Source: Torpedo marmorata
Taxonomy: Eukaryota
Assembly (NCBI GenBank): GCA_977017645.1
Contig: OZ360243.1
Location: forward strand, 26,350,001 to 26,414,000
Direction of reading: 5' to 3'
DNA length: 64,000 nucleotides
A program made the translations under genes and the position numbers. The notes below the pieces were generated by a model. It was given only the letters and a program-made list of their open reading frames with translations. It had not been told where the DNA came from and did not search any database. This document shows, piece after piece, positions 1 through 26,700 of this stretch; the stretch's first letter is position 1; each line of letters begins with the position of its first letter.

Positions 1-415
1 TTGGAAATCTGATGTAGATTTAGGGTTAGGAAGATGGCATGCAGAACTTCGTTCGTGTATACCACTTGAAAAAATTACTTATAATTTACCTAATAAGTAC
101 ATTTCTTTTTTAAAATTTGGAGCCCATATATGAAAGTTGTTGGTTTAAGGATTTGAAGATCTCTGGATATCGGATCTACTGGCGTACCTAACCTCCATAA
201 TAGAATTAGTTTATAGATTTAATTTTTAGATTGACATTCTCCTTACTCTATTTTTTTTTCTTTCTTTTATTTTTATTTTATTACATTAGTAGGGATGGGA
301 GGGTTAGGGAGGGGAGGGTGGTGAAAATATATCACAAGTATTTCGATAATTTTATATTTTATCTTATGTATTTTGTGATTTAAAATTTTAAATAAAATAT
401 ATTTTTTTTAAAAAG
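1..415 (+). mobile_element. L1/Tx1-clade LINE 3' end (ORF2 C-terminus, 3'UTR, A-rich tail)
   Basis: WKSD...[18 protein letters not shown]...KIWSPYM...GLRI*, homologous to 4800-5240; AATAAA. Confidence 0.93.
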
Positions 416-439
416 AGTGTCCCTTCAGAGTGTCCCTTA

Positions 440-487
440 GGGTAGTACTGGCAGACTCATTTGTAGTTGTCTCTGTAGTTGTTTTTT
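440..487 (-). pseudogene. PTS micro-exon 5' part (EKTTTETTTNESASTT) running into the L1 tail
   Basis: ttttcag acceptor at 488; no strong donor before the L1 poly(A) near 415. Confidence 0.55.
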
Positions 488-853
488 CTGAAAATAAAAA
501 TTTTCATAACCACTACATTCAACCTGAAGAATAACAGAACTGAGGAAATGTAAATGAGCCAGTACATATTGCAGAAATGAAATGACATCGTGCAAAATAA
601 TTTCAGCAGGTGATTCCAAATTTCCAATCATATTGTATGCAGAAATAATATTTACTGAATGTTTTATCTGTCTGACAAATAAACCCTGCATCACATGACA
701 ATCTCCAGTGAGCAAGAGTGATAACCTCATACAACTCACTGTGAAACAGTTGAAACTTTCAGGTATAATACCGAGTAATTATGAAGATCATGATAACTTC
801 CTTTCACTACAGAACATCCATAAATGAAGATGCAAAAGCAACAAAATTGTGGA

Positions 854-2236
854 CGACGACCACATCGGTGCTGCCTCATGCACCCGCGATGAGCTTGTCA
901 ACTTCATCCACTTCGCGTCCAGCTTCCACCCCGATCTCAAATTCACCTGGTCCATCTCCGATGACACTCTCCCCTTCCTCGATCTCTCTGTCTCCTTCTC
1001 GGGAGACAAGCTTTCCACCGACATATACTACAAACCCTCCAACTCCCACAACTATTTGGACTACAATTCCTCACACCCTATCCCCTGCAAGGATTCCATC
1101 CCCTTCTCTCAATTTCTCCGTCTCCGCCGCATCTGTTCCCAAGATGAGGTCTTCCAGTCCAGATCTTCTGAAATGTCTGCCTTCTTCCACAAAACGTGGC
1201 TTCCCCTCCACCACCATCAACTCAGCCCTCACCCGCATCTCCTCCATTTCCCGCTCATCTGCCCTGGCCCCCTCTGCCCCCAGACACAACAAACATAGAA
1301 TCCCCCTCATCCTCACCTACCACCCCACCAGCCTCTGCATCCAACACATTATCCGCCGGAATATCCGGCACTTACTACAGGATCCCACCACGAGACACAT
1401 TTTTCCTTCTCCTCCCCTCTTGGCCTTTCGCAGGAACCGCTTCCACCACGATTCCCTCGTGCACTCATCCTTCCTCACTTATCGCACCCCCGGCACCTTC
1501 CCCTGTGCCCGCAGGAGGTGCAACACTTGCGCCCGCACCTCAACCATCACCACGGTCCGGCGCCCCAAACAGACCTTTCAAGTGAAGCAACACTTCACTT
1601 GTACATCCAGAGAACTTATTTACTGCATCTGGTGCTCCCTTTGTGGCATTCTCTACATCGGCGAGACCGGTCGTAAATTGGGATATCGCTTCTCTGAGCA
1701 CCTCCTCTCTGTCCGCAACAACAACGACCTCCCAGTAGCCAACCATTTCAATTCCGAGTCACACTCCCACACTCATGTCTGTCCATGGCCTTATGTACTA
1801 TCCCACCCAGACCACCCGCAAATTGGAGGAACAACATCTTATTTTCCTTTTGGGCACTCTCCAGCCAGATGGCATTAACATTGACTTTTCTGCTTTCTCC
1901 TAAACCTGCTCGCCTTTTCCTTCCCCTCCCCCCTGTCCTGTCCTTCCAGTTTTTCCGCCCACCCAGCCATCCCTCCTCCTCCTCTTTGCTGCTGTCCTCT
2001 CCCTCCTTTCTTCACCTATCATCTCCTGCCTTTGCCACCCCGCGTTCCCCCCCCCTCACTCTTTTGTTCAGACGCCTGCCGGCATTTTCTCATACTTTGA
2101 TGAAGGGCTCAAGCCCGAAACGTCGGTTATGTATTTCTACCTTTACCACATAAAAGACACTGTTTGTCCTGCTGAGCTTCTCCAGCATTTGTGTTTTTTA
2201 CTTCAACCACGGTGTCTACAGATTTTCGTGATTTAC
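854..2236 (+). mobile_element. Penelope-like retroelement, 5'-truncated (RT C-terminal part plus GIY-YIG endonuclease, frameshifted), 15-bp TSD
   Basis: PFLDLSV..TDIYYKP..YLDYNSSHP (RT thumb); CARRRCNTC and IYCIWC..C..LYIGETGRKL..RFSEH (GIY-YIG); caacaaaattgtgga at 839-853 and 2237-2251. Confidence 0.92.
2091..2134 (+). ncRNA. Minimal hammerhead-ribozyme-like motif in the Penelope terminus
   Basis: (T)TGATGA-a-GGGC tcaa GCCC-GAAACGTC; the core has T in place of the canonical C3. Confidence 0.55.
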
Positions 2237-2468
2237 CAACAAAATTGTGGAGCCCTGCACTGGTTATTTTCAGTTTTGATTCCTTCTCAACCCTTATGTG
2301 GCTGAGAATGATGCGTCGACATTTCAAGAAAATGACCAAAAGATTGGCACTGTCTTGAAAGTTTGAATTTGAACTGCATGAGTTTAGTACCAGGAAGAGA
2401 CATGTTACTCAGTTTCATGCAGGATGGCTGATTTAAGCAGGCATATTTCAAAGAAAAAAAATCCAATC

Positions 2469-2697
2469 AATGTTTCGATCAAAAAAATTGTGAAAGATTC
2501 AATAATTATGCCATTAACCAATGATATCTACTGAAAATGATGGTGAAGTGCCAGAAGAGCACAAAAGTGGAAGTTGCAATTGAACGAATGAATCAAGTTA
2601 CACATTGACAAAAATGAACACACACCCGTGGTGGAGGGAGTGGTTCTTGTTGACACCGTGGTAGTTGTTTCTTTGTAAAATAATTAAGGTATTCAAA
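2469..2697. repeat. Left copy of a perfect 229-bp direct repeat flanking the L1
   Basis: Base-by-base identical to 5239-5467. Confidence 0.95.
2626..2670 (-). CDS. muc19: PTS micro-exon type B ([15 protein letters not shown]), identical copy 2 within the 229-bp duplication
   Basis: Identical to 5396-5440, with the same splice sites. Confidence 0.55.
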
Positions 2698-5600
2698 CTG
2701 CTATTATTACAGTTATACCAAAAAAAGATAGAGATGTATTAAAAACTGAATCATATAGACCTATTTCTTTATTAAATGTAGATTATAAGATTATGGCAAA
2801 AATTTTGGCTAATAGAATAGCTAAATATTTGCCAAATTTGATACATTCAGATCAAGCTGGTTTTATTAAAAATAGATATTCTAAAGATAATATAGCTAGA
2901 TTATTAAGTTTAATTAATTTTCATAAAAAGAAACAAGATTTACCATTGGTGATTACGTTGGATGCAGAAAAGGCTTTTGATAGATTAGAATGGAATTTTT
3001 TATTTAAGGTATTAGAAAAATTTGGTTTTGGGAATACTTTTATAAATTGGATTAAAACTATATATAAGGAACCTACAGCTAAGGTAATTACAAATGGACA
3101 AATATCGTCAAAATTTTCTTTAACGCGTTCTACAAGACAGGGTTGTCCCTTATCACCAGCTTTATTTGTTTTGGCAATAGAACCTGTAGCTGAATTGATT
3201 AGGACAGATCCTAATATAGTGGGGATTAAAGTTGGTATAGAAGAGCATAAGATTAGTTTGTTTGCAGATGATGTATTAATATATATGACAAAATCAGTTT
3301 CATCACTTCAACATTTAGCTATTATATTAACAGAATATGGTGAAATTTCTGGATATAAAATTAATGCGGATAAAAGTGAAATAATGGCTTTATCTCAAGG
3401 TGATTATACTAGATGTAAAGAAGTTACGGAATTTAAATGGGCAAAAGAAGGAATTAAATATTTGGGAGTAAAAGTAGATACAAAATTAGAGAATTTATAT
3501 AAATTAAATTATGTACCCTTACTTACAAAAATAAAGAAAGATTTGGAAAATTGGAAAGATTTACCTATAACTTTAATGGGGAGAGTAAATTGTATTAAGA
3601 TGAATATTTTTCCAAGAATTCAATATCTTTTCCAATCAATTCCTTTTGGAATTCCAAAAAATTTTTTTAAAGATTTAAAATTTATAGTTAGGAAATTTTT
3701 ATGGAAAGGGAAGTTAGCAAGAGTGAGTATGGAGAAGTTAACATGGAATTATGAGATGGGAGGTATGCAACTCCCTAATTTTCAATATTATTATAAAGCA
3801 GCTCAATTAAAATTTGTTAATGAATTTTTTGATTTAGTTAAAACTTCTGCTTGGATTAATATAGAATTAAATAATATCGGAGAAAATTATAAGGAGGATA
3901 TTATTTATAAGTGGAATTCTAAATTATTATCAGTTAAAAAGAAAAATTCACCGATTATTAAACATTTATTGGATATATGGACAGAGGTAGATAAAAGAAT
4001 AGGTGGGAAAGGTAAGATTTCATTAAATATGCCAATATATCAAAATCCACTTTTAACGTTTTCTATGAATAATCAATTATTAAAAATATGGTTTCAAAAA
4101 GGTATTAAAAATTTTAAAGATTGTTTTGAAGCTGGAAGATTTGTTACATTTCAAAGACTGAAAGAAAAATTTGATATATTAGATAATACATGGTTAGTCT
4201 ATTATCAGATTAAAGCTTTTCTAGTTGAGAAATTAGGAGATAATTTGATTACTCCAAGATATAATGAGTTGGAATTATTAATTACTAAAACAAATATTAA
4301 TAAGTTTATTTCTCAAATGTATAAATTACTTCAGAAAAAAATGCCTAAAGTAGGGTTACATAAATCAAGATTAAGATGGGAATTAGATTTAAATATTAGT
4401 ATAGATCAAAAACATTGGGAGGATTTATGTAAGTTAAGTATGACTAAAGTTATTAATGTTAGGTATAGATTGGTACAATATAATTTTTTTCATCAATTAT
4501 ACTTAACACCAAAAAAACTAAAGAAATTTAATCCGGCATTGTCAGATTTGTGTTTTAGATGTAAGAATGAAGTAGGTTCTTTTGTTCATTCTACATGGTC
4601 ATGTCCTAAGATTCAAGATTTTTGGTTTAAAGTTAAGGATTTTTTAGAAAGAGTTTTCAATGTTAGGTTTTTATTGGACCCTATGTTATTTTTATTTGGA
4701 GATATTAGAAAATTTAGTATTAGGAACAGATTGAATATGTATCAGGTAGAGTTTTTACGTATTGTTTTAGCGGTTTCAAAAAAATGTATCGCTATTACTT
4801 GGAAATCAGATTTAGATTTGAATTTAGATAGATGGCATGCAGAACTTCGTTCATGTATTCCTTTGGAAAAAATTACCTATAATTTACGGAATAAATATCA
4901 TTTATTTTTAAAAATTTGGAGCCCATACATGAGGGTTATGGGTTTGAGGATTTGAAATTTTTTGGGAACTAGGTCTATTGGCGAGTTTAACCTCCAGATT
5001 AGAATTAGTTTTTAGATGGCTCTCTCCTCATTATTAATCTCTTTCTCTTTTTCTCTTTTTTTTCTTTATCTATTTTATTTTTAGTATAGTGGGACTGGGG
5101 GGTTGGGGAGGGGTGGGAGGGAGTGGGGGGAGGAAATTTATATCACTGTATTTTGGAATTATATATTTTGGATTCTGAATTATGTATTATGTGATTTTAA
5201 AAATTTAAATAAAATAATAAAAAAATAAAAAATAAAAAAATGTTTCGATCAAAAAAATTGTGAAAGATTCAATAATTATGCCATTAACCAATGATATCTA
5301 CTGAAAATGATGGTGAAGTGCCAGAAGAGCACAAAAGTGGAAGTTGCAATTGAACGAATGAATCAAGTTACACATTGACAAAAATGAACACACACCCGTG
5401 GTGGAGGGAGTGGTTCTTGTTGACACCGTGGTAGTTGTTTCTTTGTAAAATAATTAAGGTATTCAAAACATCAGAAACAAATCTGTACCTTAACTACTCA
5501 AGCAGTGGAATACGAGTTTGTAATGCACAGGAAAATAAATATGAGAAAATAAACTTGTTTGTGGTCATTGAGAAAAGGTAACACTAACCAGGTGTGTAAC

Positions 5601-8600
5601 TGGTGGTCGACTCTGTTGTTGATGTTGTTGTTTTTTCTGCAAATGAATGATGACACCATCATTACATTTAACTTGGATAACACAAATCAAGAAGTAGAAA
5701 ATAACTCAGGAGATATTGCACAAATTAAAAGATATTGTGCATATTACTATCAGCAAAATCACTCAAAACAGAAATATTATTTATTGTATAAATCATTGCA
5801 TCACAAGTCATTTCTGCATGAAATCTGCATCACTTGGTGAGTGAGGAAAACACCCCCTTTACTAAACTAGAATATAGTTTGCAATGAAAATCCTTGAAAA
5901 TTAAAAAACAATACCGTATTGACAGAAGATCGCACAAAGGCTATTGCAGCCTTTCCTCTATGCTGGTAATGTTCTTTTTTTAACTTACAAGCACATATTA
6001 GCATAGTTGGGTTAAAATATCTATCAATGAATAATGAGAGAAGACATCACTCACCAGATGTGTAACTGGTGGTAGATTCAGTTGTGGTTGTCTGTGGAGT
6101 TGTTTTTTTCTCTTCAAATAAAAATGTTGGCATCCATTATATTTAAAGAAGAATAACCCAATTGAAACAGTACTAACAGATATAAGAGCGAAATGTGAAC
6201 TTTCGGGCATCCAAATGCAACTATGCACTAGCCATAGCATGTTTCTAACAGCCACTTTGATAGCTTGGCCTCAATGTGCCAATAAAGAACTTCATTATCA
6301 GGTCAGCTCCTGCAGTTCAACATGTCACCTTTATACATTTGTATAATGAAAAGAAAATGGTGACATTTTACAATGCGTGTTGTTGCCAATTTACAATGAG
6401 GAAACACTGAAAATATGGGGATTCAGAAAAGGCAAAAATAGTGAACTTCACAATGCTCATTTTACAGATGATTATACTGAAGCATCAAAACTGTTGTAAT
6501 CAACAAGACAACAACTCTTTTCAGTTATTCCTACCATCAAGAAACCTAGTGCAATATATTATGGATGGATGTCCAATGCATTGTTCAGTAAGTTACTACA
6601 AATAACATAATGAGTTAACAGATTCAATATTTAATGACTTCTATAAAAAAAATGTACAAAGTAATTGTAGCAAGTGACTCAAATTTATAATAGGCATCCA
6701 TATTGAACTGTAATATTTACTAGGCTTTTTATTTGCATTACAAACAAACTCTACATCAAATATGTATCACATGGTGCACATGAATGTTAGCCTTATTAGC
6801 TTGCCCAGGAGGGTGTCACAGTCAGAAAGTTGTACTGCAACAAAATGCGACCTTGGACCCACCACATCCCTACCCCCCTAATTGTCCACCCACATGAATT
6901 CCAATTGCATACATTTGGACTCTATTCTTCGAAGACTCCTTGACTGAAAAGTCTGTATCTTCAACGTTGTTATTATATCTGATTCCAACATCTCCTTCTG
7001 ATATCAACTGATCCCAATGTAATTAACCTCAACCCTCAGATTTCCTTAACAAATTGTTCCTCTCATCTGAAATCTTTGCCCACTTGTTTTTGACACCAAA
7101 CCATGGATGGAAGATTTTGACTGACCTCTCTATGATGCTTACAATCTTTTATACGTCACTTCAGCCTGCTTTGCCAAAAGAAAACAGGCTGAGATTATCC
7201 AATCTCTCCGTACAACTAGAATCCTCCAATCGAGGCAAAATCACGGAGAAGATTAACTTCTCCCTGTACATGACAATATTTGTCATATATTAGTAACAGA
7301 GTTTGGAAAAAATTTCTGCATCTTTAATAAATTTGCCACAAGTTTTAATACTTCGGCCAACACATAGTCACAAACCCAGTTTTAGAACTGAGGCAAAGGC
7401 TGCTTCCCTCACATTATGCCAGATCAGCATTCAACTGAACAAACTGACCAGTACATCTAATAGTGAGACATAGACTACTGAGCTAAAATTGTCATACTGG
7501 AAGCAGAGAGAATGAATGCCAAATACTGAATATGAATTTATGATGTAGACAAAAGATGTAATAAAAGAAATCCGTTGGTGTACATCATGAAAATTTCGTA
7601 GTTACCAGTTGTGGAACTTGTGGTAGACTCAGTTGTGATTGTTGGAGTCGTTGTTTCTTCTGCAAACAAATGATTGCACAAAAATTACATCGAAATTCCA
7701 GTAAAACACATATCGGAGAGAAAAACTAGCATATATTGCACAAATCAAAAGTGTGCAAATCAACAACAGAAAAATCACTTCAAGCAGAAATAGTATGTTG
7801 GGTGTTTCATCTGGTGTCACAAGCAAACTATGCATTGAACCTGCACAATTTTGGGAAGATAGAATAGGAAACCCCTGTAGTACACTAGAGTTCAGTTTAC
7901 ACTATCAGTTATAATGCTGACAATTCATTAGACACACAAAGACAATTGAAACAGCTGTTTTTTACTCAGTGCTTTGAAGTCGTTCATCTCTGCTGATTGT
8001 GGTCACAATAAAACAAATGTAGTTGTAGAATCTTGTCCAGTATGTGAATGCCACAGCACACTCATAGAACCAGACAAACATCGAGGGCAGAAGATCAAAC
8101 ATTGGGCACTGCTGCACTTCCCATTTCTTACACTTGATGATATCAAGGTATAACCCACAAGACGATGAGCTACTGAGCTTAAATTGCTCAAATTGTGTAG
8201 GTTGGTGTTGTGGCTGTTGTACCTTCTGTAAACCAATCATTACACCATCATGAGATTCAATTTGAAGAACACATATCAGAGAGAAGCAACAGAAACAGCA
8301 AATAGGAACATTAAAATGAATGTGCAAATTAATTGCACCAAAATTACTCCAAACAGAAACAATATTAGTTGGGTATTTCAACTGTATCTGAAGCAAACTC
8401 TACATTAAATCTGCACAATTTTGGTCAGATTCAAGGAGAATCCCCTTCAGTACACATGAGTCCAGTTTACACGGCCAATTATAATGTTGAGAAATCATTA
8501 AAAACTTAAAGACAAGAAAGACAACAGAACATACTTGGGGAAGGATGCTGGACTTCGGAAGTCCAAAATACAGTTACAGAGAGGGGAGTTGAGGTCACTA

Positions 8601-11600
8601 CAGTTCTCAGTTTTGATTCCCTCTCACTCAGCCTGTATGGTTCAGTATGGTGGATCAATACATTCATGGCAATGACCACTGCACTTTGAATTCAAGTTAC
8701 ATGATCAAATATCCATGAAAGACTTTTTACTCAGTCTGACACAAGATGGATGATTTTAGTAATTTTCATTCAACGAAGATGAGTCCAAATTACTTCTGTA
8801 AAATTATTGCAGAACAATTCTTACAATATTTAGATGAACAACCATTGCTCTCCCCTAGCAATTATATTGATGTACCAAAATGGAAGTAAATGAATTTTAT
8901 TGGCATTTAATGAAGTTGCAATTGAAGGAATGAACAAAACTGGCAATTATACACACACCGAGGCAATGACTCACCTGCAATGGAGGGAGTGGTGCTTGGT
9001 GTCACTGAGGTAGTTTGTTGTTCTGGAAAAAAATAGAAGGATTCAGAACGCATTCATCTCAGTACCTTAATTATCCAGCAGTGCAGATGCAGAAGCAAAT
9101 GCAAGTTGTGTGGAACAAACTTGTTACACACTGCAAGTGCAAGTGTTCGGATTGATTTGCATTTGTCAAAGCTCTGCCTAACTTTCCACTTGCTCGATAT
9201 CTTGCTGGAGCCTTAGTCAAACTACCCCACAATCCACTGCGCCATCAATTGCTCTGTCATCTACAAACTTACTACGGTAATTATTTCTTCCACATTCATT
9301 TCCAGGTTAAAAGATACGACAATCTGAAACATTCACTGCAGTTCTCCATTTTGATTCCCCTTCAAGATCTCTGTCTGGTGGATCAAGATGTTAATGGCAA
9401 TGACCAAAAGCCTACGACCACTCCACTTTGCATTCTAGTTGCATTATTAAATATCCGTAAGAGACTTTTTAAAATCAGCATGACACAAGCTAGCTGATTT
9501 TGGTCATTTTTGTTTAACAAAGATGAGTTCAAAGTACTTATGTAGAAATTATTGCAGAACAATTTTTACAATATATAGACCAGGCGTGGCCAAATTTCCT
9601 TAACGCAAGAGCCACAGACGATAAACTTCAGATGTTGGAGAGCCGCGTCATGAAAAAAATATTACATACACGTTTTTACTTTTGCATGCACATTTTGTCA
9701 CAAAAAGTTTATATAAATATTAAGAATTACATGTTTGAAATAATATTTATTAATGTATGTCGTTTTTAAACTGCTAATTTGTATTAGTTTCAATCATCAA
9801 AAAGTACACATGCAATAGACAAATTTTGTGGACCAATTTAGGGTAAAATTTGGGCGGTCGACTATTACATGCATACAACTTTTGAATGTGGTAAGTACTT
9901 GCGTCGTTTTAGGCGTTAGGAGCTTGGAAGGGCGGGCGGGCGGTCTGGGCCTGGTGGTAAGTCCACAGTCGGGGAGTCGGATGGCCAGGACTGGGTGGTA
10001 AATCCGCAGTCAGGGCGTCGGGAGCTCAGATGGGCGAGCGGCCAGGGCCAAAAATAGGGGGTTAGGGTTAGGCCTCGACTATTACACGCGTATATACGTG
10101 TATATATGGTATACATACCAAATATTTTCAATCGCAAGCCATGTGCACTAAAATTACCATTGTGAGCACCAGCTCGTACAATTCATGTCTCAGCCAACGT
10201 ATTTCCATGAGCAGTGGCGGATTAACCATTAGGCTGAGTAGGCTGAAGCCAAGGGGCCCGGAAGGTAAGGGGGCCTGGCGCATTATGGTCTGATTAAACT
10301 GACTTAACAAAAACAATGAGGCTCATTACTCAGCCTAATGGTTAATCCGCCACTGGTTGTAGAAGCGTAAATTTGACACCTTGTAGCCATGCCAGTTTAT
10401 TAAAAGAATGTCCATTAACCCCAGGCAGACTACAGCGCCAGCGATCGGGACAGGGGTTCGAATCCCACGCTGTTTGTAAGGAGTTTGTACGTTCTCCCCG
10501 TGTCTGCATGAGTTTTCCCCGGGGGCTCCGCCAGGATTTCTCTGATATTTATTTGTTGAACCTGCCAGATTGCAAGAGACCCCCGAACTGCACCTGAGCT
10601 AGTGGCAGCGCTGTCACTGGCCCGTCTTTGTCTGGTTGCACTGGGTGTCTAAGATTTTTAGAAACACATTTGCGGTGCATTTCAGCAGCAGCGGACCCAC
10701 GGGCCAGGTATAGAAGACCCGACCACGTGGACACAGAGGGGGGCTACAGGTCAAACTGAGACGCGGGGACCTGAAGCTTCCGCTCCCTACCATCCTCCTG
10801 GCCAACGTACAATCCTTGGAGAACAAACTTGATGAACTCCAAGCCAGACTTCAACATCAGAGAGTCATTAGGGATTGCTGCGTGATGTGCTTTACAGAAA
10901 CGTGGCTAAACGTGGACATTCCGGACACGGCGCTGCAGCCCAAGGGCTACACCCTCCATCGCGCTGACTGAACATGAATAACCAGGGGAGGCGGCGTTTG
11001 TGTCATCATCAATCCATCGTGGTGCACAGACGTGACGGTCATGTCCTAGTCCTGCTCCCCCGACCTGGAACATCTGGGGATCAAGTGTCGCCCATTCTAT
11101 CTGCCGAGGGAGTTCACCGCCATCATCCTGGTCGCAGTGTACATTGCGCCCCAGGCTAACGTCAGGCTGGCACTGGAGGGACTGAGCACTGTGATAAACA
11201 GCCATGAGACAGCACATCCTGATGCCTTCCCGATCATTGTGGGAGACTTCAATCAGGTCAATCTGAAGAAATAACTGACAAACTACCACCAACACATCAC
11301 ATGCGAGACCAGGGGAACCAACACACTCGGCCACTGCTACACCACCGTGAAGAACGCATACCGAGCCAAACCACGACCGCACTTCGGCAAGTCTGATCAC
11401 CTGGCTGTACTTCTACTCCCGGCGTACAAGCAGAGACTGAAGACCACAGCACCAGTGGTGAGGAAGGCGAAAGTATGGTCGAGGGGGGCGGAGGAGCGTC
11501 TGCAGGACTGCTTTGAATCGGTGGACTGGAACATATTCAAGCACTCAGCCACCGACTTCATCAAGACCTGCGTGGATGAGTGTTTGCCCACGTGCAAATA

Positions 11601-14600
11601 CCGGGTGTTCCCCAACCAGAAGCCCTGGATGAATCAGAGAATTCGCAACCTGCTGAGGACGAGAACAAGGGCGTTTAAGGCCGGGGACCTGGATCTTTAC
11701 AAGAAGTCCAGGCACGACCTGCACAAGGCCATCTCTGAAGCAAAGTGGCAATTCCGAAGGAAGCAAGAGACAGAGACAGATACACGCCAGCTATGGCAGG
11801 GAGTGCAGGCCATTACAGCCTACAAAGCGAGGGCGAACACTATAGACGGCTGTGATGCTTCGCTACCCGATGAGCTGAACACCTTCTATGCCCGCTTTGA
11901 GAAGAAGAACAAAACAGTGCCTACTAGAATCCCTGAAAAGGCTGAGGACCCTGTGATATCTGTCTCTGAGGGCAACGTCAGAACATCATTCAAGAGGGTG
12001 AACCCTCGCAAGGCGTCAGACCCTGACGGCGTACCTGGCAGGGTACTGAAAATCTGCGCCAACCAACTAGCCGGAGTGTTCATGGACATTTTCAACCTCT
12101 CATTGCGGCAATCAGAGGTTCCCACCTGCTTCAAAAGGGCATCAATCATCCCGGTACCCAAGATGAGTAGTGTGGGCTGCCTCAACGACTACCGCCCAGT
12201 AGCACTAACTTCTACTGTGATTAAATGCTTTGAGAGGCTGGTCATGGCCAGAATTAACACATACCTAAGCAAAGATCTGGACCCACTGCAATTCGCCTAT
12301 CGTCACAATCGCTCCACAGCAGATGCAATATCGCTGGCTCTCCACTCAGCTCTGGATCACCTCGAAAACAGCAATTCATACATACGGCTGCTCTTCATCG
12401 ACTACAGCTCGGCCTTCAATACCATTATTCCCTCAGTGCTGGTCAAGAAGCTACAAACTCTAGGCCTCTGTACCCCCCTCTGCAACTGGATCCTTGACTT
12501 TCTCATCGGAAGACCACAGTCAGTACGAATTTGAAACAACGTCTCCTCCTCACTGATTATCAACACAGGCGCACCCCAAGGATGCGTGCTTAGTCCACTG
12601 CTCTACTCGTTATACACCCATGACTGTGTGGCCAGGCACAATTCCAATGCCATCTACAAGTTTGCCGATGACACCACAGTTGTCGGCAGAATCACAAACG
12701 GCAATGAGGAAGCGTACAGGAGGGAGATAGATCAGCTCGTTGAATGGTGTAATGGCAACAACCTTGAGCTCAACTTCAGCAAAACCAAGGATTGTGGACT
12801 TCAGGAGGAAGTCAGGGGAACACGACCCAGTCCTCATTGAGGGCTCAGTAGTGGAGAGGGTCAAGAACTTCAAATTCCTGGGTGTCAACATCTCCGAGGA
12901 TCTGTCCTGGAGCATCCACGTTGATGCAATCACAAAGAAGGCTCGTCAGCGGCTATACTTTGTGAGGTGTCTGCAGAGATTCGGTATGTCACCGAAGACT
13001 CTCGTAAACTTCTACAGGTGTACCGTGGAGAGCATTCTGGCTGGTTACATCACTGCCTGGTATGGAGGCGCCAACTTCCAGGACAAGAGTAAACTCCAGA
13101 GGGTTGTTAACTCGGCCTGTGACATCACAGGCACCAAACTTCACTCCATCGAGGACATCTACATGAGGCAGTGTCTTAAAAAAGCAGCTTCTATCCTCAA
13201 AGACCCCCACCACCCAGGCCATGCCCTCTTCACTCTGCTTCCATCGGGAAAAAGGTACAGGAGCCTAAAGACGAGCACTCAACAGCACAAGGACAGCTTC
13301 TTCCCCGCTGCCATCAGATTCCTGAATAATCAATGAACCAAAGACACTGCCTTACTTTTCGTGCACTATTGTTTATCATTTTTTATAGTAATGTCGTAAG
13401 ATGGTTAATATGAATGTTAATTGCACTATGATGCTGCCGCAAAACACCGAATTTCATGACTTGTTCATGACAATAAATTCTGATTCTGTTTCTGATAACG
13501 CTAGTGCGTCTGTGAGTCCGTAGGCCGGCACATAACTGGCAACTTGCGCTCACTGCCTCCTTCGCCAGCGTCTGCTGGGCGAAACTGCGCAAAATCCACA
13601 AGCTATGTCTGTGCTCGGGCCCAGACCCAGACCCAGCGAGATTCCCCTTTCCCTGCGGCCACATTGCGTTCAGCCGGTGCTGGCCAGGCAGCCGAGTAAC
13701 CCCGATGGCTGCAGCTCGCAGCTGGTTACTTATGACGCCCTTTGCAGCTGCTGCAACAAGTGAACAACTCTCTCCGAGTGGTCATGGCTAAGAGATCGGT
13801 GGGTTGTACTTGACAGTTGGATGTGTTACCAATGGGGAACATTTAGAAACAACAAGCAGGGAGATAGTCTTTTCCAGCATTGTCAACGCTTCGGGAGAAA
13901 AGGGGGGGCGAAGAATGGATTTGGGCAAGAGGGTTCGAGTTGGGACCGGTTGGAGGAAGCCGGCCGGTGTCGGGACTGTGCGTCTGAAGTCGCGTCGGGG
14001 TGGCTCGCAGATGCAGACGCAAATGCAAGTTGTGTGGAACAAACATGTTACACACTGCAAGTGCAAGTACACACTCCCTCAAAGGTCAAATTACCTGAAG
14101 AGACTTGTTTTGGACCTTGGGGTGGGAGAGGGAAGTTATGATTAAAGCTTTGCTGAAAAAAGGCATCACTCACCAGTGGTGGAAGTGGCAGTGGACTCAG
14201 TTGTGCTGGTGGTTGTTGATATTTCTTCTGAAGGGAAACAAAAGCAATAACATTTCATTCATTCACATCGACTGGTAGATTTTGTATCACTGTCAAATTC
14301 AGTGGATATTTTTCAATGTTGAAGGGATTGCTCACAGTCGAGAAAAACCTCTTGCATTAATTATCATCTTTAGAAACTCAAAGGACTATCGACCAATAAA
14401 TGGTTTCACAATATAGTCATTGCTTAAAATTTGAACACAGCGAATAATTTATGAACTGCCCATCGTAAAAATGTAACATATTGTGTGTAAAAATTATTTT
14501 CTGCGAAATGTTGGTTTTATCATTGCTATTAATCAAGAGGATGGAAATGTTTACTAGTCACTTGCTGCAAGGTTTTGTACATCTGAAGCAGCAGCAGACC

Positions 14601-17600
14601 CGGAATAATATCTGAGGCAGAAGATCAAATATTGGGCACTGCTGCACTTCCTTTTCTTCGTCTTGAGTCTCCTCAAGATACAATGCAAAAGACGATATCA
14701 TAACATAAGAACATAAGGAATCGGAGCAAGAGTAGGCCATTCAGCCCGTCATGCCAGTTCTGCCATTCAATGAGATCATGGCTGATCTCATGATAGGCTC
14801 AACTCCACCTACCTGCCTTTTCCCCATATCTGTTAATTTCCCCTACCAGGTAAAAATTTATCCAACCTTGTCTTGAATATATTTAATGAGGTAGCCTCCA
14901 CTGCTTCAATGGGCAGCAAATTCCACAGATTCACCACCCTCTGGGAAAAGCAGTTTTGTCCTAAATCCACTACCCTGAACTTGAGGCTGTGTCCCCTAGT
15001 TCTAGTCTCCCCCAACAATGGAAACAAATTACCTACCTCTATCTTATGCCTTTCAAAATTTCATACATTTCTATCCCCTCTTATTCTTCTAAATTCTAAG
15101 TCCAAGACAACTCAATCTCTCCTCATAGGCTAACGCCCTCATCTCTGGAATCAACCTGGTGAACCTTCTCTGAACAGTCACCAAATCCAGTACATCCTTC
15201 CTCAAGTAAGGCGACCAGAACTGTATACAATACTCCAACATGAGTTTCTGAGCTAAAATTGCAGACTAAAGATGAAAGGATGAAATCCAGATAATGAAGA
15301 TGAATTGTTCTGCATAAGAAAATGGATTTGATAACAGAAACCTGTTTGTGTACATTGAGGGAAGAGATCACTCACCAGCTGTGGAACTGATGGTAGATTC
15401 AGTTGTGTACATTGGTGTTGTTGTTTCTACTGGAAACCAATGATCACACCATCATTACAGTCAATTGGAAGAATAACATATATCAGGGAGAAACAACAGT
15501 AACAGCATAGAACCACAAATTATAAAAGAGCGTACAAATTAATTTGAGCAAATTCACTGTAAACAGATACAATATTAGTTGGGGATATCACCTGCATCTG
15601 AAGCAAACTCTGCATTAAATCTGCACAATTTTGGTCAGATTTAAGGAGAATTCCCTTCAGTAGACTAGAGTCCAGGTTACATGGTCAGTTATAATGTTGA
15701 CAAATCATTGAAAACTAAAAGACAACATAGTCACCAGAACATTCTTGGGGCATTGCATCCCTCCATCTGTGCTGGTAATGGTCAAAATACAACAAACAAG
15801 CATAACTGTGTTACAATATCTGTTAATCTTAACGAATTGAGAGAAGACATCACTCACCTGTTGTATAAGCGGTGGTAGACTCAGTTGTTGTTGTCTTTGA
15901 AGTTGGTGATTCTTCTGCAGAAAAAGGAGTTTTCACGTCCATTATATTTCATTTCCAGAATGACTCAATATCGAGCAAAGTAACAGAAATAAGGTTAATT
16001 GCATGGAATAAACACAGAATGTGCTGAATAATTGCAGCAAGTGACTAGAAATTGACAGTCATCATTATGCATTTATTCTGCATCTCAAACAACCTCAAAA
16101 TCAAATGATTGTCATGTATGTGCATCAAATGTCAGCATGAGTGTAAGTCTCATTCAGCATTCTGTCAACCAGTTGGAGTCATGGACATAGAGTTGTACAG
16201 CAGAGAAGTGGTCCCGTCAGCCCACCTCATCAACACCAGTCTTGGCAACATCCTGCAGAGTCTTTTCCACACTCTCTTCAGCTCAATGATATTCGCGTCT
16301 ACAACGCACCACCTTACACTTGTTTGGATTGATTGGCATTTGTCAAAGCTCTACCTCACTTTCCACCTGATCCATATCTTGCTGGAGCCTTAATCAAACC
16401 ACCCCACAATCCACGGTATCACCAATTGCTCTGTCATTTACAAACATACTACTCATTCCTTCACATTCAACTCCAGGTTAAAAGATGCGACATTCCAAAA
16501 AATTCACTGCAATTCTCCGTTTTGATTCTCAAGTTCTCTGCATGGCTCAGTATAGTAGATAAAGATGATGATGGCCAAGACCAAAAGCCTACGATCATTG
16601 TATACTGAATTCAAATTACATCATTAAATACTCATGAGAGACATTTTACTCAGTGTGACACAAGCCAGCTGAATTTAGTCATTTTCATTTGACAAAGATT
16701 AATTCAAAGTACTTCTGTAAAATGTATTGCGGACCAATTCTTACAATATTTATATCAACAACCATTGCAGATGCAGAAGCAAATGCAAGTTGTGTGGAAC
16801 AAACTTGTGACACACTGGAATTGCATAAACACTCTCTCAAAGGTTAAATTACCTGAAGAGGTGTGTTTTAGATCTTGCGGTGGGAGAGGGAATTTGTGTT
16901 CAAAGCTTTGATGAAAAAGGCATCACTCACCAGTGGTGGAAGTAGTTGTGGTCTCAGTTGTGCTGGTGGGTGTTGATGTTTCTTCTGAAGGGAAACAAAA
17001 GTAATGACATTTAAATCTTCTATCTAGACTGGGAGATTTTGAATGACTGTCAAATTCAGTAGATATTGCACAATGTTGAAGTGATTGCTCATGGTATAGA
17101 AGAGTGTCTTGCATTTCTTATCATCTTTTCAAACTTAAGTCAAGTCAAGTTTATTGTCATCTGATTGCACAAGTACAACCCAACAAAACAGCGTTCTCCA
17201 GTCCTCGGTGTAAAACATGCAGACACACAACTAGACGTGACACACAAACAATATATCTGCAGTACAAGTATTCATATATACAAATAAATAAATACATTTT
17301 GTTTAGTAAATATGAGAGTTTTGGATGGTTAGTGTGAGCAGTTCCATTGGTCGTTCAGCATTCTCACTGCCCGCAGGAAGATTCTATTTTTCAGCCTGGT
17401 GGTGCTGGCTCTGATACTCCTGTATCTCTTTCCCGACAGTAGCAGCTGAAAGATGCTGTGTGTGGGGTGGAAATTGTCCTCAATGATTTTGTGTGCTCTC
17501 TTCAGTAACGATCCCAGTTGATCATGTCGATGGGTGGAAGGGAGACTCCAGTGATCCACTCAACCACTCTAATGATCCTGTGGATTGACCTCCGATCCAT

Positions 17601-20600
17601 TTCTCTGCAGCAACCACACCATACTGTGATGCAGCCAGCCAGGACACCCTCGATATAGCTCTTAATGGTGGCTTGTAGCCTTGCCTGCTTCAGTCTTCTC
17701 AGGAAGTGCAGTCGCTTCCTGACACGTGAGGAGGTTTTGTGTGTCCACGATAGATCACTAGTTAAGTGAACTCCAAGGAACGTGGTCCTCTCCACTCTCA
17801 CCACGACAGAGTTATTGATGTGTAGTGGAGGATAGTCATTTCTGGTCCACCTGAAGTCCACGATCTTCTCCTTCATCGTGTCCATGTTGACACTAAGGTT
17901 GTTACTCTCGCCCCATATCACAAGACTTTCCACCTCTTTTCTGTAGTGCAACTCATTGTTGTTGCTGATGAGGACAACTACTGTTGTATCATCTGCAAAT
18001 TTATAACCCTGTTGGAGCTGGATCTGGCGATGCAGTCATGGGTCAGTAGCATGAAGAGGACTATCAACCAATAAATGGTTCCAAAATATAGTCATTGGTT
18101 AAATTTGGTCACACAGCATTTAATTGATGAACTGCCCATTCTAAAAAAGGAAACATTTATTGTGGCTAAAATCTATTTATTGCAAAATGTTGGTTTAATC
18201 ATTGTTATTAGTCAAGGTGGTGGAAATGTTTCTGGTCACTTACTGCAAGATTTTGTACATCTCACACACCAGACTCACAGACCTGGACTCACAACTATGC
18301 AGAATGTCAAACATTTGGCACTGCTGTACTTGCTTTGTTTTGCTAGTATGATAACATGAGCTACTGAGCTGAAATTGCAAGACTGAAGAAAAGATGAAAG
18401 CCAGTCATTGGAGATTAGTTGTTGTGAATGGACGTGATTCAAGAAACATTGAGAGAAGATGTCACCCATGATGGTGTAATCATTTTATTCACAGAAGAAC
18501 AACCGCACTGATGACAACAACTGAGTCTACAACCAGTCTCAATTGTGGTTGTCAGCGCGTTTGTGTCTTCAGTGAAAAAAATGATGACACCATCATTACA
18601 TTAAACTTTGGAATTATATTGATGTACCAAATGTAAAACATATTTCTTATAATTGAACTTTAGTGAAGATGGAATTGAACAAATGAACTCAATAGCACAC
18701 AAACTTACAAGGATCCAGTTTTCACTGCCAGTTACATTGCTGCTAATCACTACAAAAGGGACAATTTTGACAGCTTAACATGCTTAGTGTGTTACAGCCC
18801 TTCATCAGTGTTGACAATACAGTAAAAGTCCAAAAATCCAGATGCCAGAAATCCAGACCACCCAAGAATCTGAACTCCTCGAATACTCTCAAACGTTTTA
18901 AATTTAGCGGGCTTTTGTGTGTACGTGCGTGCTAAGCACCACAGATGCATAGAAGTCGCAGAAATTAACAAATAAATATTAACAGTATTTTCTTTTTTTG
19001 TATTTTGTATTTTATATGAAAACATGTTTCATTAATAAACTATCAAAATTTACCTACTCATATCTTCTTTATTCTCCTTAAATTTGAATTTTAAAGGTAC
19101 TGCCCAAGAATCCTGAAAATCTGAAAAGCAAGTCCTACCCAATCCCGGACCAATCCTGCAATTTGGTTTTTATGACTTTTACTGTAGTCAGTAACAACAC
19201 ATGAGTTTGTGGTATATCTAACCAAAATTGTGCTAAAATATCTGTTGAAAAATATTGAAAGAAGTTTTGTCTCACCAGTTGTGTAACTGGTGGGAGACTC
19301 AATTGTGGTAGTGTCTGTAATTTTTGTTTCTCCTGCAAATAAATACATTCATGACCATTTCATTCCATATGAAAAATAACACGATTGAGACAGGAGTAAC
19401 CTAATCAATATTTATTGTGTGGATTAAAAGAGAACACGCAAAACAATGCAGCATTGACTCAAAATTTATGATCAGAATCTATATTCAGCAGTAGTATTCA
19501 CTGGGTGTTTAATCTGTATCACAAAAAAAATAGACCACATGAGTATCATGTGGTGAGCCTGAGTATGTGCATCATTCATCATGCTGTTGTCCATTTGCAG
19601 TCATAGTCACGGAGTTGTACAGCAGAGTATTTGGCCCTTCAGCTTTCCTGTCCTGGTTTACATTTTTGTCCATCTCCACTCATCTTATTTGACACATTCA
19701 AGGAACAGTGGTCCTAATCTGTAGGTTTCTCCATTCATCAACCTTTCTTCATCCTCCAGCACTTAAAGTCCACCCCAATTTGATTTCTAAAATGTCTGAC
19801 ACAAGTTGGTTGATTTTAGATGTCTGTTTAAAGAGGAGTCAAAACAACTTGTGTGGAAATTGTTGCAGAAGTTTTCTTTCAGTATTTAGTGCAATGCCCT
19901 CTATTGGGAATTACAGTGAAGTACCAAGAGGGCAAATGAATGAACTTTTATTGAAGTTTGATGGAAGTTACATTTCAGCAAATAAACCTCATGAATGTCA
20001 ATTACACACTGACAAAGGCTATCACTTACCTGTTGTGGAGGGGGTGGTGCTTAGTGTCACCGTGGTAGTTGTTTCTTCTGGAAAATAATAAAGGCAGTCA
20101 AAACACAAGAACCAAATCTGTATCTTAATTTTGCCAATATGCTGATTCATATGCAAACATAAGTTGTTTGGAACAAAATTGATTTATATTGCAAGTGTAG
20201 ATCTGCTCTATTACCCTTATTAATCAGATTAGCTGATGAGAAATGGACTGGAAGAATTAACTTGTGTTGAAAGATCTGGAAACGTTTCTCGAAAAAGGCA
20301 TCACTCACCAGTTGTGGAATTGCTTGTGGACTCAGTTATGCTGGGGGTGGTAGATGTTTCTTCTCAAGACTCCATCAGGCTGTTGTTCATTGACTACAGC
20401 TCGGGTTCAACACCATCATACCAGCAAAGCCTTTGATCAAACTGAAGGATCTGGCACTCCATTTGTCCCTCTGCAACTGTGTGCTTAATGCCCTACTCTG
20501 CTCTTTGTACACTCATGACTGTGTAGCCAAATTCGGCTCCAACCTAATCCACAAATTCACTAACAACACACCGCTGTTGGCTGAACTACTGGAACTGATG

Positions 20601-23600
20601 AGTCAGAATACAGAATGGAGATTGAGAATCAGGTTGGGTGGTGCCAGAACAACAACCTTGCTCTCATTGTCACCAAGACCAAGGAGCTTATTGTTGATTT
20701 TAGGAAGGTGAGGCCAAGGGACCACGCACCTGTCCGCAATCATGGGACAGAGGTGGAGAGGTTTGAAACCTTCAGGTTCCTGGGAGTCCATATTTCAGAA
20801 AACTTCTCCTGAAATATGGACTCCCAGGAACCTGAAAGCACCTCAAAGCAACCAAGAAGAAGACACAGCAACACCTCTACTTTCTCAGGAGTCTGAGGAG
20901 ATTTGCCATATCGTCGACTACTCTATCAAACTTCCACAGATACACTGTGGAAATTATACTCACAGGTTGCATTGCAGCCTGGTTTGGGAATTCCACTGCC
21001 CAGGAACACAGAAGGCTCCAGAAGGTAACAAACATAGCCAGGTCCATCACAAGCTCCAAACTCCCATCCATTGAATGCTTTGAGTGAGGCTCTGCCTCAA
21101 GAAGGCAGCCAACATCATAAAGAATCCCATCACCCTGGTCACAACCTCTTCTCATTGCTACCTTCAGGCAGAAGTCACAGAAGCATGAAGAACAGCACCT
21201 CTCGGTTCAAGATTAGTTTCTTTCCAACAGCTATCAGGCTTTCGAACCTCCCCATGTTACACTACTCAGAGACTTCTCCTACACCAAAAAAGGACTATTT
21301 GCCAAGTCACTTTGTATGTACTTGGATAACTGTGAGTATTTATTACCTGTGTCTTTTTGTATTATTGTCTCTTTTTAATTCAATTAAATAAACTATTGTG
21401 TCTGTAGTTGTTTTTACAAAGTACCTGTTCAGCTGCAGCAAGAAAGAACTTTGAGACCTATGTACATTGTACAATGTTTATGACAGTAATCTCATCATCA
21501 TTATCAAGAGAAACAAAAGCATTGACAATAAATTCATCCATCATGCCTTTTTTGACTTCAATATTTATGCTGTTGCTCATTCAGTTTGGCTTGCTTTCCT
21601 GAATGGTACTCATCAGGTAATACCCAGATACAGAATGTGAGGAACATTCTGATTTGCATTCATTCATATCATCATAATTTGGCTGTGCTAGCAGCTCGAA
21701 GCCCAGGTATGACCTGCAATTTTGCATTGACCTTCAGTTATAAATAAAAGTTCAGACTATTTTCTCATCCAATGAAGCAAAAGGTTTGCTTTTGACAACA
21801 GCAGCTGCTTTTGGCTTAGTCCTGTGAGGCAGGTGGGTTTTGGGGCAGCAGCAGTGGTGAATGTGACTGGAGATGAGTCAAGTTGGCTGAATCCTACTTT
21901 TGACTTGTGGAGCCAAGAGGGACAAACACCTTTTCTCAGTGGGGTTTGGCATCTCTTTCAGACCCTGAAGATCTTATCAGAGTATAATTGCTAATTATCA
22001 ACATCATCAAACGTGTTGGAATATGACAAACTGTTTGTGATTCCCATTTTGTGAATATTATTTCCTAAAATACAGACATATTGATATCCTGTTTCACCCT
22101 TAGGTCTTACTATTTTTTCTTATTATTTTGCAAACATTACTTCCTGTTAATCATCATTTCACAATTGCCAATAGTTATTTTAACTGAGTTCTTTCATATT
22201 TTTGTCTCTTTGAGTTGGTAGAATGGCGAAGTACATTTATATTTTGTCATATTACTTTGTGAATATGTTTTGTTTATTAAAATTGAAAACTTATCTCTCT
22301 ACCTGTGCTGGTGATGGTTGAAGAAATTGTTGAAGTTGATGTCGGTAGCGTTGTGGTCAACAGTGTTGTCGATGGAACAGTTGTGGTGGTTCGTCCTGTT
22401 ATGAAAATGCACACAATAAAACTGTGCTCCTTATCTATTTGTGAATATTCTTTAAAGTACCACTCAGGAAACAAAAATTCACTCTTGTCAAATTCACAAA
22501 TCACTACTCAAAAATTAGAGATGCGGAATAAAATTCCTCTCATGTAATATACATGGGAAAACAAACAAACAAATATATAAATAAATGACAGAAAATACTC
22601 AAGAAACAACAAATTTTATTTTTATTTTTTTTGTCATAATTCTGTAAGCTAAAATGTTTTCAATATAACATTACTGCGCCAATTGGGTTGACACTCGCTG
22701 CCTCAGTAGAGCAGCCAACATACTGAAAGACCCATTCCACCTTGGACATCATCTGTTTGAGCTGCTGCCCTCTGGTAGACGCTTCAGGTCCATTAAATCA
22801 CAGACAAACAGACTTAAGAACAGCTTCTACCCCAGAGCCATATCAGAACTGAACACTGCCAAGCACTGACACCGATTGGTTGGGATCTGTGTGACTATCA
22901 GCACTACAATACTGTACTTCAGTCACACCTAAAGAACAGTTGTATACAAATACAACTGCACCTTTTTATGTATATATTTCGGACTGCATTATTTGTATAT
23001 AGAGCCACTACATTACAACTGCACTTTTGTATGTAAATATTCCCAACTGCACTACTTGTATAGAGGGCCACTGCAATTTTCAATTCCAGTAAATGTGCAA
23101 TATCGAGAAGTGCAATATCTCAATATCTCAGTTGCTTTTGTATTGTTTTATATTTTATTGTTTTCATTTTTAATTGCTGTTTGATTTGTGTGAATGCACC
23201 GTTAGGATTGCTAATTAATTTCATTGTACTCTGTGCAATGACAATAAAGGAATATCTATCTAATCACAGCTAAGTCCCTCCTTTGACATCCCTTTTCCAG
23301 TCTGAGAACAGACGTCTCACAGTGTGTAGCTGCATTGTGGGGACCAACATGAGCCATGGCCAGTTCCTTAAAATAATCCCTCTGTCTTTGCTCCACTTCC
23401 ATTAAGTCACCATGCTTTAACCAATTGCCCCGGAACTCCTTCTTCACTATCTTTCTCCTATGAACCCCAAATCTCAAATCCCAACCCTTTTCATGATATC
23501 CTACTTCCTGAACTTTATCCTAATCATCATAGGCAAAGAGCGAAGCAGCACTGCAGTCTGAGACACCTGTTCACATGTCCTCTGATTGGAGAGGGCATGG

Positions 23601-23779: not shown

Positions 23780-26700
23780 GTGTATTGGCTTAGTCAGCAA
23801 TATGCACATCTATGAGATCAAGAAGAGATCACTTTAGTGCTGTACCTTCTGAAATAAAGATATGACTGCAACTGTTCAGTTGCCATGTTAATGATCAATA
23901 ATAAATTATTTCCATTGACAAGAAAGATCTGTTATTGAGAGTTTGTACTGTTGATGGTAAATCACATCTGCAATATCTTCAGCAGAAGGGCTGTTGATAT
24001 TGTAGAACCATCATATGAAGTGTGAAAATACCTCATACGCTGTTTTTATTTCAGATTTTCCATTGATTTCCATCAAATCTTTGATGAAGATGGAGAAGCA
24101 AAACGTGGCTCAAAATGGAAGAATCAATTTAAAGACAACCCGATTGATCCAGACATTTATCCAACTGTATTTCTGTCACACCAAAATGAATACCTCCTGA
24201 CATTAATGTTGCACTGCAAATTAGCTAATGATGAAAAAAAGTAATTCATTGCACATACTAATTCTTTTAACATTACTCACGTCGGCAAGTAGTGATTCCG
24301 TCCTTGCATATACTGTAAATAAAAAACAAAGCTATTACAACAATAAAGAGCTCATTAGGTGCAGTGGTTCACCCTTTCTGGTATGATTAACAACAAACAG
24401 GAAGCAGAAAGGAAAATTATCAGCTCTAAAATGATCACCTTTGGAGGTTTTTAAAATACAGGGTGTAATGTATGGTTTGAGTGCTCAATCTGTTCATAAC
24501 TAATTGCAGATTGTGCAAGAAACATGAAGAACTTTAATAAAATTTGTTGGTTTAGTTTTGAGCACCTCAGATCTCCTGGAACTTTCTACAGAACATTACT
24601 GCAACTTAAGGAGAAATTCCTCTGAAAAGGGGTGATATCCTGAAGTGAAAATACATTTTTCACAATTTCATGTCACACTGACAGAGAGACAGAGTAATGA
24701 GAATGACATGATGATGAGATGGACTCCCAGTAGAAGAATAATCAACTGAATCGTATGGGGTAGAGAGAACAAAGAAAGTAAAGGTTGTGAGCAGACTTTG
24801 TTTGAGAAACAGAAAGTTAACAGTACTGCAGAACAAAGGAGGGTGGTGGGGGTGAAACATGTTGAGGACAATTATTTTGGCCTTTGTTCAGATGGAAAAT
24901 TATCACAGACTGCATTTTATATATCAATTCTTAGAATATCTATTTTAGAAGCTCATGGGACTATTTGGACATCATAATATATTTTTATGTTTTATTTTAG
25001 GTAACTAAAAGTTTAAAATTTACTCACATGATTAATCTAAATCAGAATATGTCAAATACCTTTGTATCTGAATTCATAGTGGGTTATTTCTGGTTCATAA
25101 CAAAATCATTTCTCAGACTTAAATGTTTATGACTCAATTTACTTATTTATGGCATTTTCAAGAGAATGGTTACATATGTAAAAGATTCAAAACCTACCGT
25201 ATATTTCGGCGTATAAGTCGACCCTTGAAACCCTCAAAAATGTCTCAAAAAACGGGGGTCGACTTATACGCCGGATATACTTTTGAGACCTTAAAATCAG
25301 CTCAAAATCGAGTTCACGCCGATTCGGCGTATAAGTCGACCCCTGAAAACACGATTCGGCGTATAGGTCGACCCTGGAAGTGCCTCCCCACTGCCGGCGC
25401 CGCCGCTCCCCGACACCTCCCCACCGCCGGGCGCCGCCATAAACCACCCAGACATTCTACAATTGTAGAGCCCGAGGTCCCCGCTCCTACCCGGGAGAAC
25501 GAGCTCCCCGCTCCTGCCTGGGAGAACGAGCTCCCCGCTCCTGCTCGGGAGAACGAGCTCCCCGCTACTGCCTTGGAGAACGAGCTCCCCGCTCCTGCCC
25601 GGGAGAACGAGCTCCCCGCTCCTGCCTTGGAGAACGAGCTCCCCGCTCCTGCTCGGGAGAACGAGCTCCCCGCTATTGCCTTGGAGAACGAGCTCCCCGC
25701 TACTGCTCGGGAGAACGAGCTCCCCGCTCCTGCTCGGGAGAAAGACGTCGCCGCACCTGCATCTTCCCGGCCAGAAGCAAAGGTTTTTTTTACTGTTTTT
25801 TTTACTTACCGGTACTTGCTTAATTTACAGCTTTGTTACTTGGCGATTGGGATGTTGTAACAAATTTTGGGTTGTTGCTGGGAGGCCCAGACAGCCTGAA
25901 AATTGGGGGTCGACTTATACGCCGGTCAATGCGCAACATCTCAGGCATCCCGATTTTTGGGGTCGACTTATACGCCGGATATACCATAAAACCATTAAAA
26001 TGAGGCTGAAAAAGGGGGGTCGACTTATACGCCGGTCGACTTATACGCCGAAATATACGGTAATTTTATTATAATTATATATATTTTTTGCTTTCATTGG
26101 AATGGCGATAAATATTCAATGATCTGGCTACTTTACCATTCTTCACAATCATTCATTGTTGTTTCACCAGGTTGCAAAATTCTTCCGTCATAATAACATG
26201 TGCACTGAGGTAATGTTACACATTTCATAGTATTTTCATCCAGGTAAGGAGCCTTCTCTGGGCACTTGGCATAGCAACCTGAAACAGTGAGAAGTAAAAG
26301 TCACAATGGAGACAAACAAGAACTCAATGAATACTATAAATCTTGAGGCCAATGTTCCACTTTAAAAATGCATGGTTTTCCCCTGAATGACTACCTTAAC
26401 AAATTAACTTCCACTACCCAATCCTCCATTGTTTTGGGCCTTGTGTTGCCAGGTTTAGTCACAGCATGACAGCACACCTCCGCTGGCTTCCCTGGTGCAT
26501 GAACTTTACTATTTTAATTGTAAGCTACAAAATGTTGACATACTTCTGTGTTCCACACATTAATAGGAGGGTTTATCCTTTGGAGACAGAAAACATTGAA
26601 CACATGAATAATTGAATCCTCTTACACCATGATAGAAAAAGGAAAAAGGGCACTCTCTTGTGAAATCAAATGTGAAGATCCGTAAAAGCCCATGTGACTA

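Follow-up and report, generated by a model that had tools for sequence, protein, structure and literature searches.

Long target-site duplications (TSDs) are a known, rare outcome of LINE insertion. According to the available text of the papers cited here, TSDs above 100 bp make up less than 10% of events in HeLa cells, and most exceed 100 bp in NER-deficient cells (Servant et al. 2017, PMC5223499); the ZfL2-2 element left a TSD of 1228 bp in one of 25 wild-type insertions (Suzuki et al. 2009, PMC2666801). Tandem duplications of 1-10 kb have been taken as large TSDs, with break-induced replication proposed as their source and short deletions being more frequent (bioRxiv 10.1101/2024.12.14.628481). 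Habitually long TSDs are described for Chlamydomonas Dualen-4b (median 900 bp) and rotifer R9 (126 bp; PMC9977147). On the host side, PTS mucins with one exon per repeat include chicken Muc13 (PMC1552070) and chicken MUC2 (PMC3549977), and Schistosoma SmPoMuc consists of ~1-kb exon-plus-intron tandem units under concerted evolution, with at most about 20 repeats (PMC2576457).

Here we analyze a locus in which an L1 and a mucin of this kind meet. The window is a stretch of 64,000 nucleotides, positions 26,350,001-26,414,000 of contig OZ360243.1; all coordinates are window positions, negative ones lie upstream of the window, and a slash marks a splice or cut point. In the last unit of a tandem array of predicted mucin micro-exons there is a very young, 5′-truncated L1 in antisense orientation, abutted directly at both ends by a 229-bp direct repeat, and we consider it likely that this repeat is a true long TSD that copied one predicted exon.

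The mucin gene and its tandem array

The domain content of the predicted exons identifies the host gene as a gel-forming mucin of the MUC2/5/6/19 type. Its N-terminal exons lie in the window, and a Mucin2_WxxW (CysD) domain (E 2.7e-16) and a VWD domain (E 3.8e-10) are found downstream of the array near -107,000 and -108,900. The CysD piece matches MUC5B best, and the VWD piece matches FCGBP and MUC2 best; a protein homology search with the CysD exon returned nothing at E<=1e-8 among 58 candidates. The features of the gene are as follows.

29593-60098, minus strand: N-terminal VWD, C8 and TIL exons (Pfam match in seven of the eight ORFs scanned, one below cut-off)
6055-22395, minus strand: older, diverged PTS micro-exons, some with altered sites
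5589-5636, minus strand: next predicted micro-exon upstream in the gene, with a CAG acceptor
about -104,600 to +5,850 (contig about 26,245,400-26,355,850): tandem array of ~110 kb, its in-window end at 1-5850

A genome search with 2300-2800 finds, immediately upstream of the window, about 30 matches spaced ~3.2 kb apart; the array lies within 200 kb of contig sequence that holds no N and in which the units are told apart by distinct variants. Since the window begins at the array edge, this ~110-kb structure was out of sight of the preliminary description, which was made from the window. The standard unit is 3213 bp long and carries three predicted micro-exons, and units are 96-99% identical; four longer units carry a fourth exon and a donor-less exon fragment. 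In total there are 114 exon-like loci including older and some degenerate ones, and the array is predicted to encode most of the PTS domain of the mucin. The L1 junction was tried as the right boundary of the array and rejected, as homogenisation continues to about 5800-5850. The array itself, a fully assembled PTS domain with one exon per repeat, is arguably more interesting than the L1.

Other repeats are found in and around the units. A GC-rich, retroelement-like piece at 860-2235 belongs to the array units, and most differences of the edge unit fall in it. A 238-bp insertion at about -1,150 to -910 contains AATAAA and has TG...CA-like ends; long units carry it, the terminal paralog lacks it, and by these features it looks like a solo LTR. 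An older 0.5-kb L1 3′ fragment at -102 to 410, within the array, has a normal 15-bp TSD; the same fragment recurs at -40,620 to -40,111, so that two long units 40.5 kb apart share it and two far-edge long units lack it, and this shared fragment is a marker of higher-order duplication. Outside the array, the minus strand at 31542-32666 carries a 374-aa open frame that we take to resemble a pogo/Tigger-type transposase, and related elements with internal 27-bp repeats (25473-25760, 28692-28835 and 39011-39092) lie in the mucin introns.

The L1 insertion and its direct repeat

The insertion and the repeat on its two sides comprise the following features.

2469-2697, plus strand: left copy of the duplication, also the end of the last long array unit
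2626-2670, minus strand: predicted symmetric PTS micro-exon of 45 nt, the copy further downstream in the gene, with AAG acceptor and CGG/GTGTGT donor
2698-5238: full insert, consisting of an extra C, the L1 body and an A-rich tail
2698, plus strand: extra C at the 5′ junction, absent from the target and from most sister copies at this point
2699-5215, plus strand: body of an L1-clade LINE, 5′-truncated and antisense to the mucin
5216-5238, plus strand: A-rich tail, as read from the sequence
5239-5467, plus strand: right copy of the duplication, directly behind the A-rich tail
5396-5440, minus strand: identical predicted micro-exon, upstream copy in gene direction, with the same sites
5507/5508: 438-bp deletion found only in the terminal array unit, 40 bp past the duplication

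Positions 2469-2697 and 5239-5467 match exactly over 229 bp, which is the longest exact match, with zero extension on either side. The match of 229 in 229 is far beyond chance. As the leading AA is indistinguishable from the poly(A) tail, the duplication is 227-229 bp long. In empty array units the nick context reads ...CCAATC/AATG.... At the 5′ junction, AAA is common to target and L1 (3-nt microhomology) and is followed by the one extra C; sister copies read TTTTTTAAA/TGCT here, and empty units read TTCAAA/ACATC. The ORF2 remainder at 2700-4955 is a single open frame of 751 aa followed by a 3′ UTR, and it matches RVT_1 (E 1.7e-43) and, below the curated cut-off, zf-RVT (E 0.0036). These results agree with the preliminary description, which had reported the 229-bp identity at both L1 junctions, a complete exon-like segment with acceptor and donor in each copy and an unbroken ORF2 remainder. 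Its label L1 is also consistent with the reverse transcriptase, the tail, the truncation and the short TSDs of the putative family.

The focal element is clearly very young, non-chimeric and the product of a single event. Compared with 20 full-span sisters it shows 99.6-99.9% identity with 2-9 mismatches and no switch point, figures that come from top hits because the sister matches were picked for similarity. It differs from the commonest letter among these sisters at three positions and has one private substitution in 2517 bp. In a genome search with the L1 3′ end, the 40 scored hits among 673 candidates are all 100% identical. Sister copies are 0.4-6.0 kb long, with variable 5′ truncation, A-rich tails and short TSDs. 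Given one recent event, as the whole-length identity and the one private change indicate, identical TSD copies are expected.

We compared the focal repeat with the TSDs of 81 sister loci, of which 42 are young (cut-off 98.5% identity) and 39 belong to an older subfamily; these are top-scoring matches and thus a non-random sample. From 20 extra loci only L069 and L070 entered the young set, and the other 18 were excluded from the 81. TSDs of 10-20 bp are found in 38 of the 42 young loci, one has ~5-7 bp, one has none, and two lie in satellite where the TSD length is ambiguous. Among the older loci, 25 of 39 have TSDs of 10-18 bp, five are nested in other L1s and nine have unrelated flanks. A clear junction TSD above 20 bp occurs in none of the 81 loci surveyed, counting the two satellite loci as ambiguous. 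This survey bears out the preliminary description, which had expected short TSDs, and the 229-bp duplication is therefore a one-off and not a family trait. Unrelated flanks without duplication are seen at 10 of the 81 loci (nine older and one young), which makes deletion at the junction look more frequent in this genome than a long TSD. In 33 of the 36 sisters with a junction TSD the base before it is a pyrimidine, mostly in the form Y/AA; the focal nick context C/AA, whose leading As merge into the tail, fits this family pattern, and the tail itself is normal. The two satellite loci (L044 and L055) lie in a 10-bp satellite in which a TSD length is undefinable, the same ambiguity as at the focal site. 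Young L1s are often found within or beside older L1s (L035, L042, L064, L067, L089 and L101).

Two other L1s in the region bear on the comparison.

33353-35726, within 33338-35741, plus strand: older L1 relative with a stop inside ORF2
33338-33352 and 35727-35741: its 15-bp TSD
-53,591 to -49,486 (L013-L014 region), minus strand: second array L1, 4.1 kb, gene-sense, with broken frames, inside the focal exon class

The first had been described as a sister with an ordinary TSD; the 15-bp TSD is present, but at 90% identity to the focal L1 the element is an older relative. On both sides of the second stands a 32-bp repeat, equivalent to 2620-2651, whose copies differ at one position; its length is 30-42 bp according to how tail and microhomology are counted. 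Because the repeat includes the donor and the final 26 nt of the exon, a complete exon with donor has been retained (-49469). Finding two duplications above the norm in one array and none among 81 loci elsewhere is suggestive at n=2, but the older L1 fragment at -102 to 410 of this array has an ordinary 15-bp TSD.

The predicted exon and its likely consequence

The duplicated exon is a 45-nt, phase-1/1 exon-like segment between an acceptor ending in TTTTACAAAG and the donor CGG/GTGTGT, and behind a split codon it translates into 14 residues. It belongs to a class of 31 copies, and the same peptide is predicted in 24 of the 29 others. If both predicted copies are spliced in, the mucin would gain 15 residues, one cassette among about 110 and less than 1% of the cassettes, which is no larger than the change expected from ordinary unequal crossing-over in the array. 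The importance that the preliminary description attached to this gain is thus reduced by the 29 copies that already exist: with ~30 near-identical cassettes nearby, the effect on the mucin is probably slight. A tandem cassette junction in cDNA is ambiguous unless anchored, since skipping two exons anywhere in the array mimics it.

Whether the repeat arose by duplication or by deletion, the chances are about even that there is no gain at all, the cassette being weak or dead and mostly skipped, or the antisense L1 disturbing the transcript. We judged splice-site strength by comparison with the paralogs and with the textbook consensus, in which an AAG acceptor and a CGG/GTGTGT donor stand at the weak end but are possible. 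Paralogous acceptors read CAG-NAG (TTTTCCAG/AAG at 20030 and TTTTTGCAG/TAG at -104638), whereas the focal class has only the AAG. Visibly degenerate cassettes lie nearby: 448-505 is without a donor, the acceptor of 6055-6111 has changed from CAG to AAG, and the pyrimidine tract of 20309-20362 is replaced, all of which point to exons being gained and lost. The start of the insert, read on the gene strand, is a long tract rich in U with a CAG, and the insert contains 10 AATAAA motifs compared with one in the standard unit. Against a dead cassette, all 31 class copies keep AG, GT, the length of 45 nt and an open frame, although few changes are expected among the copies and this conservation therefore says little. 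Across units, a comparison of the exon with its flanks finds five variable sites in 45 bp and no depletion, and is uninformative on selection. The second array L1, which hit the same exon class, left one whole copy with its donor, and the mucin gene already holds further antisense L1 pieces.

Origin of the repeat and comparison with known systems

The array provides many paralogous counterparts of the insertion site. The ~105 kb that precede the window hold 28 further intact copies of the 229-bp segment (94-100% identity), a split copy and a copy of 78% identity; all intact upstream units have the segment once and lack an L1 at both junction positions. These are empty sites of the kind for which the preliminary description had proposed to look, found in paralogs rather than in an allele. 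The same copies qualify its argument from zero divergence. The youth of the insertion is upheld by the single private change in the L1 body, but with 28 further near-identical copies at hand the identity of the flanking copies is less telling than it looks.

In the favored reading, an L1 would have inserted by target-primed reverse transcription into the last unit of the array, the second-strand break would have fallen about 229 bp from the first, and fill-in would have copied one predicted 45-nt exon together with its splice sites. We infer that both flanking copies come from one molecule. Their 229-bp haplotype is matched in only 1 of the 28 other intact, near-identical units, 24 of which differ at 2601, and the last four neighbor pairs before the L1 differ by 3-4 bases in this segment. 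The position of the site at the array edge points the same way. The unit left of the L1 has a mean of 75 substitutions to other units and the far-edge unit 79, compared with 30-53 for all others but one; divergence like that of the far-edge unit is expected if the unit left of the L1 is the true last one, with none lost behind it. The exception, an internal unit ending at -37814 with a mean of 73 substitutions, weakens this argument. Against a long TSD, neighboring copies are identical in the 229-bp segment in 6 of 28 cases, 229-bp windows are identical in 23% of comparisons between neighboring units and 9% between any two units, and the two flanking copies have no private variant in common.

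The main rival for the origin of the repeat is an L1 insertion with a target-site deletion. Here priming would have taken place at 2469 in the last unit, the 5′ end of the L1 would have been joined to 2697 in the preceding one, and the sequence between, one period less 229 bp (about 3 kb, if not more), would have been lost; the apparent TSD would in that case consist of two paralogous copies that predate the insertion, and two exons would have been removed rather than one added. In an array of period P, a 229-bp duplication and a loss of kP-229 bp yield the same sequence, which qualifies the single event with a giant TSD that had been proposed for this site; the single recent L1, the C/AA nick and a repeat far over the family norm stand. 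The identity among neighboring copies fits a deletion, as do the sister loci that lack a duplication and have unrelated flanks. The available text of PMC7058536 also describes deletions mediated by L1 that measure hundreds to thousands of base pairs and show 1-5 bp of 5′ microhomology. Yet the end of the deletion must hit about a tenth of the period and must join an identical haplotype present in one other unit, when the last neighbor pairs before the L1 all differ and the unit left of the L1 resembles an edge unit. In a rough weighing of our own, we regard the deletion as unlikely and the long TSD as probable.

The repeat could also have come about, in a region rich in L1s and near-identical units, if L1s inserted at 2697 of one unit and at 2469 of another and subsequently recombined, or if the 5′ junction was created by a rearrangement after the insertion. 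This origin is very improbable: the focal element resembles single sisters from end to end without a switch point, neither position is occupied by an L1 in any other unit, and the recombination reading is largely refuted. An assembly artefact, with two haplotypes or two array units merged, is the least credible explanation; arrays of units at 98-99% identity are hard to assemble, but both junctions bear biological signatures (family-typical nick site, tail and microhomology), and the units are resolved by distinct variants in gap-free sequence.

With a long TSD as the preferred origin, we tentatively consider a further possibility, which we hold to be doubtful: that a germline L1 created a whole new predicted spliced exon through a giant TSD and that the tandem array favored this outcome. 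It derives from the two array L1s, both of which sit in single units at the focal exon with above-norm duplications (229 and 30-42 bp), compared with no clear case among the 81 loci elsewhere. Neighboring homologous units might template the extension of a broken end; alternatively, selection might retain only insertions that spare the exon.

Close to the duplication, one 557-base contig from a DNA sequencing run fits 5507-5887 and breaks off at 5507, which hints weakly at a derived state of the 438-bp deletion there. Contigs of this run were compared with 5190-9100, skipping the repeat at 5190-5243, and most are less than 90% alike.

If confirmed, the locus would be a natural germline TSD that copies a complete exon with both splice sites, and thus a route of exon duplication distinct from 3′ transduction. 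Within the open-access full-text literature searched, as far as the available text goes, no description of a TSD duplicating an exon was found. The case also calls for caution, as a giant TSD and an insertion-mediated deletion look alike in tandem arrays.

The following comparisons refer to the available text of the cited papers. The focal insertion shares with the L1 and LINE cases of PMC5223499 and PMC2666801 the poly(A), the endonuclease-type nick, the 5′ truncation and a rare duplication of hundreds of base pairs in a family with short TSDs. Unlike those cell-culture insertions, it belongs to the assembled genome of a vertebrate, covers a predicted exon in full and lies in a tandem array, where TSD and deletion are inseparable from sequence alone. 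Dualen-4b and R9 likewise have host DNA duplicated on both sides of the LINE; however, their long TSDs are a family trait (PMC9977147), whereas 38 of 42 young sisters of the focal element have 10-20 bp. The PCAWG L1-mediated deletions resemble the focal site in their normal 3′ end and 5′ microhomology and would give the same sequence inside an array, but in unique DNA they leave no duplication (PMC7058536). Finally, the mucin shares with Muc13, MUC2 and SmPoMuc short symmetric T/S/P-rich exons repeated together with their introns in homogenised units. It differs from them, as they are described in that text, in that a gel-forming mucin here has some 110 exon-like loci spread over ~128 kb, with several exons to a 3.2-kb unit and with retroelements inside the unit.
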